Virus record (IMG/VR): IMGVR_UViG_3300004806_000016
Length of the DNA: 64,000 nucleotides
DNA from: a virus
Reading direction: 5' to 3' (one strand)
Of the stretch, positions 1,926 through 56,441 are shown one piece after another. The notes below the pieces were generated by a model, which worked only from the letters and a program-made list of their open reading frames with translations, searched no databases and was not told the DNA's origin. The position numbers were made by a program, and so were the translations under genes. Every line of letters begins with the position of its first letter. Position 1 is the first letter of the stretch.

Positions 1926-2119
1926 TGGATTACAAGGTGAAGAAAGAAGACAATCAGTTTAAGGTTATCGAAACAAAGACTGATAAGATTATCTATGAAT
2001 CTGTTGACGAAAAGAAAGCTCGTGAGCTTGCTAGGAAGTGGAATCTTGGTGGAGGATTTTCTGGTTGGACACCAACTTTTTTTCTTGACGAGCATAAATT
2101 TCAGCCCCAGACTGACTAA
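1922..2119 (+). CDS. Hypothetical protein
   Basis: AGGAGG RBS; NLGGGFSGWTPTFF motif. Confidence 0.65.
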   Translation: MMDYKVKKEDNQFKVIETKTDKIIYESVDEKKARELARKWNLGGGFSGWTPTFFLDEHKFQPQTD

Positions 2120-2124
2120 ATAAT

Positions 2125-2232
2125 ATCAGAAATGGTTTTGTATTGCTAGTGCACAGCAAAGAGGCAAGTCGATTTATCGAGAGGAATAGTTGAGAATAAC
2201 GGTGGGGTTCCGCTCAACCGAACCATTCTGAT
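2125..2232 (+). ncRNA. Candidate structured non-coding RNA (multi-branch, ~108 nt)
   Basis: Closing stem ATCAGAAATGGTT (2125-2137)/AACCATTCTGAT (2221-2232). Inner helices: TTGCT/AGCAA, TCGA/TCGA, GTTGAG/CTCAAC with CGG/CCG. Preceded by ACTAAATA and followed by a terminator. Confidence 0.6.
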
Positions 2233-2235
2233 TCA

Positions 2236-2264
2236 GGGGGAGATCTTCGGGTCTCCCCCATTTT
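2236..2264 (+). terminator. Rho-independent terminator
   Basis: GGGGGAGATC-TTCG-GGTCTCCCCC hairpin followed by ATTTT. Confidence 0.8.
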
Positions 2265-2307: not shown

Positions 2308-3642
2308 ATGTTTAAGTTTAAAGATTTTCTAACGGAAGCGAAGAAAAAAGAAGAAGATGATTTTAAAACAGGCGATTCTGCTGGTAAACTTTTTGAATTA
2401 CTTAAAGCCAGAGAACAAAATGGCGGAACGTTTCCCGAATCTCACAGAGTTGAAGGCAAAACACCAACTGATATTCATAACAAGATGGCTGCTAAAATGT
2501 TTGGTGATGAATATGAAAAACATCCACAATATAAAAATCTTGTTAAAACAGCACAAATTGCTGCAAAAGCAAACGATACTTTCAACCAATCAGAACATGG
2601 TCATGATGTTAAGAAAGGTTATCAGAGAGTCGCATGGACATCTCAACCAGCAGATCATCAAAAAGAAACAGGTCATGAAGATCCAAATTCTGTAGCCGAT
2701 AGTATCCCGACATTAAGTCATGGCGCTATGATTGCGCATTCTGACAAATTAACAGGTAAAGGTCAATCAGTCAACTATAAGAATCCAGGTTCTAAGACTA
2801 TGGAGATGTTGGCTCAGACTAGTTTAAAAAAACATACTGAACCTCATGCAAAATTGTTAAAGGACAAAAAGTTAACGAGTGGCGAAGAAGGTCATAATCA
2901 ATACAAAGCATTAAGAGATTCTGATAATCCAGAAGATCAAGAAACAGCAGCTTCAGTAAAGAAATCGGCTGATGTAGTCAACCAAAAATTTGCTAAAGAT
3001 ATACATGCTGGTCTGTTGGCTCAACAGGCTAGAGATGCTCAAAATGGTACTAATGAATTGAGAGATACTATCGTTAAAGCAGTAGCTCCTAAGACTCACC
3101 TTAAGACAGTCGTTACTCATACTGAAGTCGATAATCATGGTAATCATGCGCATACTAAAGTTTATGACTTGCACGATCACGTCAACCAATACTTAAATAA
3201 TTTCGAAAATTTACACGTAGATCCAGTCCACAAACAAGGGCAATCTTCAGTCACAGTTTATGGTCATCATAAAAAAACTGGTAAAAGAATGAGATTGATG
3301 GGTCTTTCAGTTTATTCTGGGGGTAGACCAACAACCATTTCTCCTAGAGGCGCCATAACTCTTCCTAGCGAGAATCATCCTGATGTTGAATATACTAATC
3401 ATCATATAGTTGGCGCTAATGGTGAACATCAAACAAATACTCCTGTTAAACAGAAACATTCTGTAGAAAAACCAGTAGAACAAAAGAAACCAAAAACAAG
3501 AGAACCAGGCCCAAGAGCTTTATCGAGTATCGTAAAGCCAAGACCTAAAATTGTTACTAATCAAGAACAGAAACAACAGAAAACCAACAACAGCAGACAA
3601 TCATCAATTGGTGGTAAGAATTTTTATGGTGAATCAGAATGA
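2308..3642 (+). CDS. Putative internal head protein, possibly PD-(D/E)XK nuclease-like
   Basis: N-terminus MFKFKDFLTE resembles the T4 capsid-targeting sequence. GKLFE...SVAD...HSDK spacing suggests a restriction-like fold (weak). His/Lys-rich. Confidence 0.5.
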   Translation: MFKFKDFLTEAKKKEEDDFKTGDSAGKLFELLKAREQNGGTFPESHRVEGKTPTDIHNKMAAKMFGDEYEKHPQYKNLVKTAQIAAKANDTFNQSEHGHDVKKGYQRVAWTSQPADHQKETGHEDPNSVADSIPTLSHGAMIAHSDKLTGKGQSVNYKNPGSKTMEMLAQTSLKKHTEPHAKLLKDKKLTSGEEGHNQYKALRDSDNPEDQETAASVKKSADVVNQKFAKDIHAGLLAQQARDAQNGTNELRDTIVKAVAPKTHLKTVVTHTEVDNHGNHAHTKVYDLHDHVNQYLNNFENLHVDPVHKQGQSSVTVYGHHKKTGKRMRLMGLSVYSGGRPTTISPRGAITLPSENHPDVEYTNHHIVGANGEHQTNTPVKQKHSVEKPVEQKKPKTREPGPRALSSIVKPRPKIVTNQEQKQQKTNNSRQSSIGGKNFYGESE

Positions 3643-5540
3643 TCAATTTCAGACAGTTTATCATTGAGGAAGAACAGCAAGAAGGCAAGAAACTCAAGCA
3701 TCTAACTCACATCGAAGACATGCCAATCCATCATGGGCATGAGGGTGTTGCTGCTGCCGATGCTATGCTTAGGGATACCCATAAGGCATTGACTGGCAAG
3801 GGAATGGGTAAGTCAACCATATCAACAAAATATGATGGCGCTCCTTCTATCGTTTATGGTCATCACCCAGAGACTGGTAAATTCTTTGTTGCTTCTAAGT
3901 CAGCTTTCAATAAAGATCCAAAGATAAACTATACACCTGAAGATGTAGAACGTAATCATGGTCACGCTCCAGGTCTGGTAGAAAAACTAAAGGCAGCATT
4001 AGAACATCTTCCTAAAGTCGCGCCCAAGAAAGGTGTGTTCCAGGGCGATGTTATGCATACGCCAAACGATGTTGAAGATCATGATGGTAAGTATCACTTT
4101 ACGCCAAACACCATCAAGTATTCTGTAGGTAAAGATTCTACTGAAGGTAAAAAGATTAAGAACTCGAAGTTCGGTATCGTTACTCATACTCAGTATGATG
4201 GTAAAGATATGGGTTCTATGAGCGCTGCTCCTATCAGTCAGGAAAACAAAGATAAGTTTAAGCAACATCCTGACGTACATCAGATCGACCCTGCGACGAA
4301 TACGGAGGGTGCACACTATACTCCTGAGATGCAAAAAGAATTTGCTAATCATATGGAGAATGCGAGACGCACCTACGCTAATATGGACCACTCAACCCCA
4401 GAAATCACAAAAGGCCATGAGATAAATCTTGAGGCTCATGTTAACGACATGGTTCGTAAGGGTGGCACTCCATCAGTCGAGGGTTTTATCTCACATCTTA
4501 AGAATAAGAAGATGAAAGATGTAGAGAAACTAAAATCCCCAGCTGGTAAAGAAAAGAAAGCCAGAGAGCATGACGATAACATAGGTCATGTCGAAGACAA
4601 CAAAGAACACTTTAAGAATCTATTAGATCTACACAGTCATCTACAGAAAGCCAAGAACGTTCTGGTTAGAGGATTGAATTCATCGGGTAGCCCATATGAG
4701 CATTCCGTTGACGGCAAGAAGACTGATCCCGAGGGATTCGTAATCAATCGTGGCGATCATATGTCTAAGCTGGTCAATCGCGATGAGTTCTCAAGAATGA
4801 ACCTTCTTGGCGCTGGTAAGATGAGCAAGAGAAACGAACCAGCAAAAGAAGAAGATGATAAGCCAATCGTCTATGCGCATGGTAGAATGAATCCACCACA
4901 TGCTGGCCATGAAGCTGTGATCAATAAAGTCCATGAGCTTGCTAATCAACAGGGTGCAGATCATAAGGTCGTATTGACTCATACTCAGGATCCTGAGAAG
5001 AATCCACTATCACCACAAGATAAGCTGGCTCATGCTAAGAAACTATTCCCAAAGACAAACTTCGGTCTATCGGATGACGAGCACCCAACACTAATAGAAC
5101 AGCTTGCTAAACTAAACAAGGCTGGCCATAAGAAACTGACAATGGTTGCTGGCGATGATCGCGTAGAGGGTTATAAAAAACTATTGAACGATCGCAACGG
5201 TAAAGATTTTGATTTTAAAAAGATTGATGTAGTATCGGCTGGTGGTCGAGATCCAGACTCTGAGGGCGTTGAGGGTCTTTCGGCTTCAAAGATGAGAGAC
5301 CATGCTATCAACGGTCGTGCTAAAGAATTCGCTGCTGGGCTACCAAAAGGAACAAGCCCAGAACATGCTAAACAATTGATGCAAGATACAGCCAAGGGAA
5401 TGGATATTCCTATCACTCCAAGCACTCATCCTGTTACTCTTAAACGTCATGCTCTAAGAAATGATCCGATCGGCCATGCTGCTCAGAAAGAGTTAAATAG
5501 AAGAGCTGCCGAAAAAGTAATGAGTAAGAAGAAAAAATGA
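3639..5540 (+). CDS. Fusion of an RNA/DNA-ligase-like nucleotidyltransferase (DUF6267-like) and a HIGH-superfamily cytidylyl/adenylyltransferase
   Basis: Ligase motifs TKYDG, FVASKS, FQGDVM, EGFVI and KLV in order. C-terminal GRMNPPHAGH, VAGDDR and SASKMR. N-terminus MINFRQFIIE. Confidence 0.75.
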   Translation: MINFRQFIIEEEQQEGKKLKHLTHIEDMPIHHGHEGVAAADAMLRDTHKALTGKGMGKSTISTKYDGAPSIVYGHHPETGKFFVASKSAFNKDPKINYTPEDVERNHGHAPGLVEKLKAALEHLPKVAPKKGVFQGDVMHTPNDVEDHDGKYHFTPNTIKYSVGKDSTEGKKIKNSKFGIVTHTQYDGKDMGSMSAAPISQENKDKFKQHPDVHQIDPATNTEGAHYTPEMQKEFANHMENARRTYANMDHSTPEITKGHEINLEAHVNDMVRKGGTPSVEGFISHLKNKKMKDVEKLKSPAGKEKKAREHDDNIGHVEDNKEHFKNLLDLHSHLQKAKNVLVRGLNSSGSPYEHSVDGKKTDPEGFVINRGDHMSKLVNRDEFSRMNLLGAGKMSKRNEPAKEEDDKPIVYAHGRMNPPHAGHEAVINKVHELANQQGADHKVVLTHTQDPEKNPLSPQDKLAHAKKLFPKTNFGLSDDEHPTLIEQLAKLNKAGHKKLTMVAGDDRVEGYKKLLNDRNGKDFDFKKIDVVSAGGRDPDSEGVEGLSASKMRDHAINGRAKEFAAGLPKGTSPEHAKQLMQDTAKGMDIPITPSTHPVTLKRHALRNDPIGHAAQKELNRRAAEKVMSKKKK

Positions 5541-25753: not shown

Positions 25754-26160
25754 GCTATGACAATCCGTGGTTTTATAACGGAGTTGTAGTTGATTCGGAA
25801 ATACTTGAAGAATACTTAGGATTCGTATATAAGATAACCAATCTGGCCAGCCAGAAGAAGTATATTGGTAAAAAGTTACTCAAGAGAACCAAGACCAGAC
25901 AGGTCAAGGGTAAAAAGAAACGCACTCTCGTTGAGTCGGATTGGAAAGACTATTACGGTTCTAATAAAGAATTACAGGAAGATGTGATAAATCTCGGCGC
26001 ACACAATTTTAAGAGAGAGATCATAAGGTTTTGTAAGACTAAAGGCGAGTGTAATTATTTTGAAGCGAAACAGCAATTTTTGCTTGACGTTTTAGAAAAT
26101 ACGGAGTATTATAATTCCTGGATAAGTGTTAAAGTACACAGAAAACATTTGCCCACGTGA
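25750..26160 (+). CDS. denA: GIY-YIG endonuclease II-like
   Basis: GFVYKITN...KKYIGKK, YYGS and YYN motifs. Confidence 0.75.
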   Translation: MSYDNPWFYNGVVVDSEILEEYLGFVYKITNLASQKKYIGKKLLKRTKTRQVKGKKKRTLVESDWKDYYGSNKELQEDVINLGAHNFKREIIRFCKTKGECNYFEAKQQFLLDVLENTEYYNSWISVKVHRKHLPT

Positions 26161-26227
26161 CGTAATAGGTAACCGTATCGGACTTAAAATCCGAGTTCTG
26201 GGAGTTCGAGTCTCCCCGTGGGCACCA
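26151..26227 (+). tRNA. tRNA-Leu (anticodon TAA), short variable loop
   Basis: Acceptor stem GCCCACG/CGTGGGC; anticodon arm TCGGA-CTTAAAA-TCCGA; T arm GGGAG-TTCGAGT-CTCCC; encoded CCA. Confidence 0.9.
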
Positions 26228-55060: not shown

Positions 55061-55214
55061 TATGATTCCTAGCTGGTATAAAATCTACACACGCATCATT
55101 GACAATACTATAAAGATAGTTTGGTTGATATTACTGATAACATGGCTGCTTGATGGCGCCAAATTGCTTGTAAAATAACTTGACTTTTTACCCAATGTAG
55201 GCTATAAATAATAT

Positions 55215-55530
55215 GCGATGGTCGTTGACGTTATACGGCATAAGCACACTGGACTCGGGGGCGGTACCCGACGCCTCCACCATAGATACATGGTGCTGTT
55301 ACCAATTAAGGTGTAAGGATGCCATCAAAAAGAACGTACAGCTCCGTTCTGGCAAATCGTCATCATGTATCTTTGCTGGGGGCGAAATAGGATCGACAGG
55401 TGTGATAAAGGTATTACTGAGATCATAGCAAACGTCATAGATGCAAACGATAATGCACCTATCGCTATGGCACTAGCTGCCTAAGCATGAGCTTTTGGTA
55501 GTTTTGGCTTGGAAACAGAACAAAACTACC
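55215..55530 (+). ncRNA. ssrA: Two-piece (circularly permuted) tmRNA
   Basis: Acceptor piece ends ...TCGGG-GGCGGTA-CCCGA-CGCCTCC-ACCA (55282). Coding piece starts GGGGGCGAAATAGGATCGAC (55378), giving the G3-U pair. Tag ANDNAPIAMALAA at 55443-55484; 3' hairpin at 55497-55530. Confidence 0.93.
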
Positions 55531-55531
55531 G

Positions 55532-55987
55532 TCAATAACAACTTCGTTGATGTAATACTAATCCATTAACTGAAATTATTTTTTTACAATTCAAACAACA
55601 TACCTTTTTTTGTTGTTTTCCTTGCATTGGATTTTTACCATTTCGGCTTTGTTCTTTTCTTTTTTCTATTAAATGTTCTTTCATTCCAGGCATTTTCCAC
55701 ATATTTAATATTTTATTTTTTTGTTGTTCTTTATTTTTAGGTAATTTATTCATATGCCAAGAATTTCTTTTACCATTTTCCGACATGGTTAACGATATAA
55801 TTTTTTCTTTATCTATCATTTTAGATAAACCAAGCCAAGCAATTCTATCGTATTCATTACCATGTTGTTCCCATAATTTTTTGTGCGCTTCTGCGTGCTC
55901 TTCTACAGTTAAAAGAACAATATTAGATGGATCGTCCGATCCACCAGCGTGTTTAGGAATTATGTGATGTTTGTGATAAATAACCAT
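55532..55987 (-). mobile_element. Free-standing HNH homing endonuclease
   Basis: HHIIPKHAGGSD..SN...LT..EH..AH motif, NPM.GK and a C-terminal Cys motif; AT-rich; opposite strand; own TATAAATA. Confidence 0.85.
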
Positions 55988-56364: not shown

Positions 56365-56441
56365 GGTCTCTTAGCTCAGCAGGATAGAGCAACAGCCTTC
56401 TAAGCTGTGGGTCGCTGGTTCGAATCCAGCAGAGATCGCCA
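56365..56441 (+). tRNA. tRNA-Arg (anticodon TCT)
   Basis: Canonical cloverleaf; ACAGC-CTTCTAA-GCTGT; CCA end. Confidence 0.95.

Follow-up and report, generated by a model that had tools for sequence, protein, structure and literature searches.

The window, by which we mean the whole 64,000-nt stretch of viral DNA that was analysed, contains between positions 2115 and 2264 of the + strand what is probably a self-contained late gene for a structured RNA, belonging to a new family and acting in trans on a conserved partner. Compensatory changes among its relatives show a four-way junction to be the fold predicted for this RNA, and by comparative data the predicted fold is far beyond chance. The RNA family is carried by many uncultured freshwater T4-like myoviruses, with one copy per genome. 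The signals encoded around it strongly support the view that the gene would be an independent, trans-acting unit of about 110 nt. An independent late RNA of this size had been put forward in the original prediction, and comparative analysis strongly supports the proposal: the promoter box is conserved, the four helices covary, a terminator ends the unit with a new promoter behind it, and the gene occurs in both orientations.

The unit consists, in 5'-to-3' order on the + strand between 2115 and 2278, of a promoter-like box, the RNA core (2125-2232, 108 nt), a terminator and a second box. The intergenic gap in which the core lies (2120-2307) extends from the stop codon of the small-protein gene F1 (TAA, 2117-2119) to an ATG at 2308. 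It measures 188 nt, where 190 nt had been claimed, and contains no + strand ORF of 30 or more amino acids; a mechanical 42-aa minus-strand ORF (2031-2159) overlaps its first 40 nt. The features of the locus are as follows, with base identity given for 84 distinct cores pooled from all sets of uncultured T4-like phage contigs and metagenomes, and pairing and covariation for the protein-anchored sample described below.

1925-2119, + strand: F1, a small protein of 64 aa, whose stop codon (2117-2119) lies inside the RNA promoter box
2115-2122, + strand: ACTAAATA, a T4-late-promoter-like box that overlaps the F1 stop codon
2125-2140, + strand: 5' strand of the closing helix P1; all 9 modelled P1 pairs (9/9) have double changes
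2130-2227, + strand: covariance-model match, the sole copy in the 64-kb window
2143-2159, + strand: hairpin P2, UUGCU/AGCAA with the loop AGUGCAC; 5/5 pairs covary, and 96% of cells are paired
2160-2166, + strand: junction strand J2/3, AGAGGCA; G.GGC is shared by at least 97% of the 84 members
2169-2180, + strand: hairpin P3, UCGA-UUUA-UCGA; the inner pairs covary (4/4)
2183-2188, + strand: junction strand J3/4, GGAAUA; at least 97% of the 84 members have the same GGAA
2189-2218, + strand: P4, GUUGAG (2189-2194) with CUCAAC (2213-2218); 6/6 pairs covary, and 100% are paired, in the protein-anchored sample
2195-2199, + strand: A-rich bulge in P4
Inside P4, + strand: P4a, CGG/CCG; 2/3 pairs covary in the protein-anchored sample
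2203-2209, + strand: invariant apical loop UGGGGUU on P4a; GUGGGGUUC is shared by at least 97% of the 84 members
2219-2232, + strand: 3' strand of P1, directly after P4
2236-2264, + strand: intrinsic terminator, GGGGGAGAUC-UUCG-GGUCUCCCCC (2236-2259) with a 10-bp G+C stem, then A and UUUU (2261-2264)
2271-2278, + strand: TATAAATA, a further late-promoter-like box, separate from the first and belonging to the gene that follows (ATG 2308)

The closing helix pairs AUCAGAA-A-UGGUU (2125-2137) with AACCA-UUCUGAU (2221-2232), giving 12 bp with one bulged A, and P1 extends to 2140/2219. UA separates the 5' strand of P1 from P2, and the three hairpins enclosed by P1 (2143-2159, 2169-2180, and 2189-2218) are connected by the linkers AGAGGCAAG and GAGAGGAAUA. 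G2189, the first base of P4 and the final G of GGAAUAG, is also identical in at least 97% of the 84 members. This arrangement had been read from the single sequence as a late-promoter-like box, a 12-bp closing helix around three hairpins with purine-rich linkers, and a UUCG terminator followed by a new late promoter. Each of these parts was found, the two boxes and the terminator at the positions listed, and the minimum free energy (MFE) fold reproduces the architecture.

In a related contig (L001), a small ORF, a look-alike intergenic element, a terminator and TATAAATA occur in matching order. An exact 19-mer from P4a/P4 retrieved 39 loci from viral contigs, all of which have the common layout with differing stem sequences, and most of which fold independently into the four-way junction. 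Ten well-aligned members and a hand-drawn structure were used to build the covariance model R1; the variable arms came out misplaced in MAFFT alignments A1 and A2, which served only for the choice of seed. R1 finds one copy per family locus, including the single copy in the window (2130-2227; 54.6 bits; E, 2e-13). A second pattern, placed on the junction strands, added 6 further members from viral contigs with a changed P4a or P4; its 23 other distinct matches there fell in coding DNA and were put down to chance. Of 55 pattern loci from a metagenome scan, 45 pass R1 at an E value of 0.001 or less. Among 185,579 bacterial and archaeal species genomes, the junction-strand pattern had 5 matches, none of which passes the model; these look like coding DNA, and their number is about that expected by chance. 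Megablast and blastn searches against 50,697 records of cultured phages found no DNA match.

As a working definition, we take a member of the family to have the P1-P4 four-way junction together with G.GGC in J2/3, GGAA..G in J3/4 and the apical loop G-UGGGGUU-C. All of these invariant bases are present in the window (2160-2166, 2183-2189, and 2202-2210), as is the usual context of a late-type box of its own, a terminator of its own (2236-2264) and an adjoining F1 (1925-2119). A record of 173 kb rated 100% complete has a single copy. A long P3 insertion sets one subgroup apart, and in two the P4 bulge carries an additional hairpin. The loci in which subtypes were seen are L022/L024 (1407-1528), L010 (1032-1156), L063 (358-464, - strand), L215, L220, L230, and L234; the subtypes comprise an insertion of about 45 nt in P3, an extra hairpin replacing the A-rich P4 bulge, and more divergent copies that are inverted relative to F1. 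Of the sequencing runs listed for the stretch, 21 in number and all of DNA, 19 are labelled freshwater metagenome; 18 of the 21 hold at least a quarter of the sampled words of the stretch, and all 18 carry that label.

Because pattern searches fix part of the RNA sequence, loci were also collected through the neighbouring protein F1. This protein-anchored sample comprises the best 80 of the 223 F1 relatives in viral contigs, chosen without reference to the RNA, and R1 detects the RNA at 63 of them. In 56 of the 63 it shares the strand of F1 and follows closely downstream, and in 7 it is on the opposite strand, convergent with F1; the 17 loci without the RNA have a terminator and the next gene directly after F1, or too little flank. 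The covariance model R2, built from the protein-anchored sample, recovers all 84 cores, scores the window at 71.0 bits (E, 2e-15), and has no hits in nine negative loci, including T4 and loci with F1 only.

The covariation among homologues that had been named as a check on the RNA gene is present in the protein-anchored sample (63 rows, 41 distinct), in which 26 of the 29 modelled pairs have double changes, distributed over the helices as listed above. The modelled partners are paired in 91.1% of cells, compared with 63.4% in shuffled alignments and 28 to 46% when the partners are slid, and the covariation score is 0.748, compared with 0.219 (0 of 500 shuffles reach the observed value) and 0.055 to 0.110, respectively. 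The two outer P3 pairs of the seed structure are only 40% paired and are to be dropped. The pattern-selected sets agree with these results, and in the 84-row alignment the 12 column pairs with the highest mutual information, among all pairs, are modelled base pairs. The covariation alignments were fitted to the model and so lean towards the structure; we nevertheless take the signal to be real because of the slid controls and the independent folds of single sequences. The same 84-row alignment contains no covariation for a Watson-Crick pseudoknot, the candidate partners all being invariant.

The MFE fold of 2113-2264 has an energy of -49.9 kcal/mol (z = -3.2; 1 of 200 shuffles equals it). The minus strand folds about equally well (z = -3.8), so that the energy of a single sequence cannot settle the strand. 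G-U pairs, however, are found on the + strand only, where the other strand would have C-A, and the strand is therefore fixed as +. The same observations bear on whether the fold belongs to the DNA itself, as a site near the helicase gene that serves as an origin, in single-strand initiation or in packaging. The constant proximity of a gp41-like helicase gene and the good folding of the minus strand are compatible with such an element, but the + strand tolerates G-U pairs that would be C-A mismatches on the other strand or in duplex DNA, and the promoter box and terminator share the orientation of the fold even in inverted cassettes. We give the DNA-element explanation almost no credence.

The columns identical in at least 97% of the 84 members are G.GGC in J2/3, GGAA..G in J3/4 and G-UGGGGUU-C at the tip of P4a. 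The invariant bases thus named sit in the junction and the loop, while the stems, the loops of P2 and P3, and the lengths of the arms vary freely; between P4 and P1 the members have 0 to 2 bases. We favour an RNA that binds a protein or a ligand, because conservation of junction and loop is typical of such RNAs and not of antisense regulators.

A regulatory RNA that acts by base pairing would use the UGGGGUU loop to pair with a C-rich target; an mRNA might offer a site such as AACCCCA, and a tRNA its 3' end with CCA. In favour of this, the 7-nt loop is single-stranded and invariant, and the terminator with its U tail is like that of many bacterial small RNAs. In addition, GGUGGGGUUCC (2201-2211) is identical to the first 11 nt of Escherichia coli tRNA-Tyr and so would be complementary to its 3' acceptor strand. 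This match covers the acceptor strand together with U8 and U9 and runs into the beginning of the D stem; it is probably a coincidence, though it falls in the invariant part of the RNA. Against base pairing, the window shows no enrichment of AACCCCA (9 sites when both strands are counted, 2 of them on the + strand, versus 4.1 expected), and a simple seed would not account for conservation that spans two junction strands. As to tRNA-Tyr, the two 5' bases of the 11-mer vary among members, a match of 9 to 11 nt can arise by chance, and the acceptor strand is not free in the folded tRNA. Base pairing is, in our judgement, an unlikely mode of action.

A compact multihelix junction with invariant unpaired bases could also be a self-cleaving ribozyme or another catalytic RNA. 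Phage genomes are rich in small ribozymes, and Rfam 15 includes models for hammerhead, twister, twister-sister, pistol, hatchet, and hepatitis delta virus (HDV)-like ribozymes. Yet neither the search around the RNA at an E value of up to 10 nor that of 18 members at an E value of up to 1 gave anything but subthreshold Rfam 15 matches, and the context requires no processing, which makes catalysis extremely improbable.

The signals on either side of the core recur throughout the family. They were counted in 51 distinct pattern-selected members, 48 of which have at least 100 nt of downstream flank. TAAATA lies within 40 nt upstream in 48 of the 51, compared with 23 of 1,273 random windows; the exact TATAAATA occurs in 30 of those 48, and in 47 of the 48 the box ends 5 to 11 nt ahead of the start of the model. 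The remaining 3 of the 51 members have TATAAATA slightly further upstream. The box of the window itself, ACTAAATA, is two mismatches from TATAAATA and recurs at a like position in several members. A terminator composed of a hairpin and a T run is found in all 48 members with enough flank, with strengths from -12 to -24 kcal/mol. Within 45 nt after it, the exact TATAAATA is found in 37 of 48 and a TAAATA variant in 7 more, giving 44 of 48. Across the window as a whole TATAAATA is not enriched (7 found versus 4.8 expected). TATAAATA is the T4 late-promoter consensus, with a start about 6 nt after the box; by analogy, the RNA is therefore predicted to start at about A2128, at the foot of P1. Late promoter use, late timing, and the ends of the RNA are all predicted from such signals.

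An alternative in which these signals would act in cis is that of a riboswitch or attenuator, in which the conserved junction would serve as the aptamer and decide whether transcription passes the terminator and enters the next gene. The core does look like an aptamer in that its stems vary while bases of the junction and loop do not, and a terminator directly follows the core in 48 of 48 members. The next gene, however, has a fresh late box between itself and the terminator in 44 of 48, the terminators are strong over the whole range given above, and no competing antiterminator pairing is visible by eye. Moreover, 7 of the 63 copies in the protein-anchored sample lie on the strand opposite F1 and point towards its 3' end; such inverted copies have their own TATAAATA and terminator, with no gene downstream in the direction in which they run. 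Where there is a downstream gene, it is from one of at least six unrelated families across 41 loci (not de-duplicated): the first gene is polynucleotide-kinase-like in 15 loci, of the window's 444-aa type in 10, and from four further families in another 10, with none assigned in 6 (3 inverted, 1 cut locus, and 2 without a conserved gene nearby). The second late box, the inverted copies, and the variety of downstream families lead us to conclude that the RNA is not the leader or riboswitch of a particular gene, and cis-acting control is very improbable.

The same variety speaks against the functional tie to neighbouring nuclease-like and ligase genes that the original prediction had suggested, and the labels themselves are not supported. 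The 444-aa protein (2308-3642, + strand) has no Pfam or PHROG match, and in the 633-aa protein (3639-5540, + strand), which is a DUF6267 domain fused to a cytidylyltransferase-like domain, no ligase is recognisable. A pattern search found no viral-contig relative of the 444-aa protein, yet when the family loci were compared, it grouped with proteins encoded downstream at a dozen others. The 633-aa protein shares about 31 to 35% identity with proteins from T4-like cyanophages, Pelagibacter phage HTVC008M, and Methylophilales phage Melnitz. Its relatives occur in about 559 cultured phage records, mostly of cyanophages, and in L001 (4001-5864) the DUF6267 and cytidylyltransferase-like domains, fused in the window, are encoded by two overlapping ORFs. 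Sequence searches of the PDB with the DUF6267 fusion and the kinase-like neighbour gave nothing useful.

The only constant neighbour of the RNA is F1, which was found beside it, within about 300 nt and in either orientation, in all 47 RNA-selected loci examined. F1 often overlaps the stop codon of a gp41-like helicase gene, to which it is often translationally coupled, and the ORF at the start of the window is the C-terminal part of a gp41/DnaB-type helicase. F1 is widespread in T4-like phage contigs (e.g., L175-L254). An AlphaFold2 model of F1 has three strands and one helix (pLDDT, 74.5), followed by a tail that is of low confidence in the model yet highly conserved (GGGFDGWTPSFF, with the pattern GGGFxGWTPxFF); read together with the model, this pattern suggests that F1 docks onto a replisome partner through a short motif. 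A Pfam scan of F1 gave nothing significant, and Foldseek found no match in the PDB at an E value of 0.001 or less. The sole tblastn match of F1 among cultured phages is in Ochrobactrum phage vB_OspM_OC, in which other genes directly follow F1 and R2 finds no RNA. Among the 17 protein-anchored loci without the RNA, one is in a record of 218 kb rated complete, which has no copy of the RNA anywhere.

As a special case of the trans-acting reading, F1 might be the dedicated protein partner with which the RNA forms an F1-RNA particle. The association in 47 of 47 loci regardless of orientation would fit such a particle, as would the modelled F1 structure, with a folded core of three strands and one helix and a conserved flexible tail. 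But 17 of the 80 protein-anchored loci, one of them in a complete genome, have F1 without the RNA, the frequent coupling of F1 to the gp41-like helicase gene suggests a role in the replisome, F1 matches no RNA-binding family or fold, and the common position could simply be the end of an operon. We consider the F1-RNA particle a possible but doubtful form of the partnership.

For the favoured reading, that of a late RNA acting in trans on a conserved partner, we propose the following course of events, which draws on sequence signals and on what is known of T4. In the late phase of infection, RNA polymerase carrying the late sigma factor of the phage would start about 6 nt past TAAATA, at the foot of P1, and would halt at the strong intrinsic terminator. 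In the resulting four-way junction, P1 would seal the 5' end and run straight into P4, leaving the P2 and P3 arms free in sequence and length, and the A-rich bulge of P4 could fold the apical loop back onto the junction. With its 5' end buried in a helix of 12 to 16 bp and its 3' end in the terminator hairpin, an RNA made late would be expected to accumulate. The surface formed by junction and loop would then bind the conserved partner, so that the RNA would serve as a stable decoy, scaffold, or cofactor rather than as a leader or antisense RNA. The partner would preferably be a protein, either a conserved host factor or F1, with a small ligand as second choice.

A more specific proposal, which we put forward as speculation and regard as decidedly unlikely in this exact form, is that of a late, nuclease-resistant aptamer or decoy RNA that captures a conserved host molecule through its G-rich loop and purine junction and is perhaps packaged. 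The captured molecule may be, for example, a nucleotide immune signal, the CCA ends of tRNAs, or a translation or RNA-decay factor. If true, this would be the first RNA-based sponge or cofactor of T4-type phages, which to our knowledge rely on no dedicated structured RNAs besides tRNAs and rnaC/rnaD. T4-type phages are among the best-studied viruses, and the family is a well-defined orphan RNA in them. With some 20 invariant unpaired bases, a compact fold and small size, the RNA is well suited to probing, pull-down, and structure determination; the identity of the partner would expose a late-infection process or a host interaction overlooked by annotation centred on proteins, and the covariance model lets others annotate the family at once.

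As had been claimed, the RNA is not a tRNA: ARAGORN finds none at 2113-2264, and its 2 tRNAs and 1 tmRNA are elsewhere in the window. Assignment to tRNA or tmRNA was rejected also on the structure, in which linkers of 7 and 5 nt and a closing helix of 12 to 16 bp do not fit a cloverleaf and there is no tRNA-like T or D arm. The tRNAs called are tRNA-Leu(taa) (26151-26227, + strand) and tRNA-Arg(tct) (56365-56441, + strand). The tmRNA call is marked with an asterisk (55189-55575, + strand; tag peptide, ANDNAPIAMALAA), and a TATAAATA box lies within it (55203-55210).

That the family had gone unrecognised in the original prediction is borne out by the Infernal-type check against Rfam 15, which returned only subthreshold noise. 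Among its 4,227 models, searched over positions 1900 to 2500 of the window at an E value of up to 10, the best match overlapping the RNA reached 13.6 bits versus a threshold of 80, and 18 diverse members searched at an E value of up to 1 gave 5 matches, all far below threshold and over terminators or flanks. Full-text literature searches found no description of the RNA family. Fremin, Bhatt, and Kyrpides mined IMG/VR intergenic regions for covarying motifs and report 10,006 unnamed candidates, with freshwater Caudoviricetes as the source of many (2023; PMC10690425). The main text contains no description of the motif, and the tables there carry no sequences; our family may be listed anonymously among those candidates. 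We conclude that the family is previously undescribed, apart from a possible anonymous entry in that bulk catalogue of 2023.

The closest parallel among T4-type phages is offered by rnaC and rnaD of T4 (species 1 and 2 RNAs), which are 139 and 119 nt long and are annotated as stable, with function unknown. They resemble the present RNA in being small and encoded by a T4-type phage. In contrast to the present RNA, which has its own late box and terminator and lies beside helicase and F1 genes, rnaC and rnaD belong to a tRNA cluster, where tRNA-Arg is their neighbour, and rnaC has at its end a T arm like that of a tRNA. R1, with filters off, has no match at rnaC or rnaD in T4 positions 69000 to 75000 at an E value of up to 10, and R2 has none on them at an E value of up to 0.01.

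In its covarying stems, invariant junction and loop, and following terminator, the RNA is like orphan riboswitch-like aptamers built on multihelix junctions, such as the four-way classes of Rfam; it is unlike them in having no consistent downstream gene, a separate promoter for the next gene, and inverted copies. A further comparison is with RNAs that act as protein-bound scaffolds, such as the prohead (packaging) RNA of phi29 and the YrlA-type Y RNAs, which are about 100 to 170 nt long and have a long closing helix between their 5' and 3' ends. We know of no RNA that takes part in packaging of the T4 type. With no match to the sequence or structure of these RNAs in Rfam, and with none of the features that define them, the present RNA is nevertheless like them in kind: phage- or operon-encoded, structured, and sealed by a closed helix.
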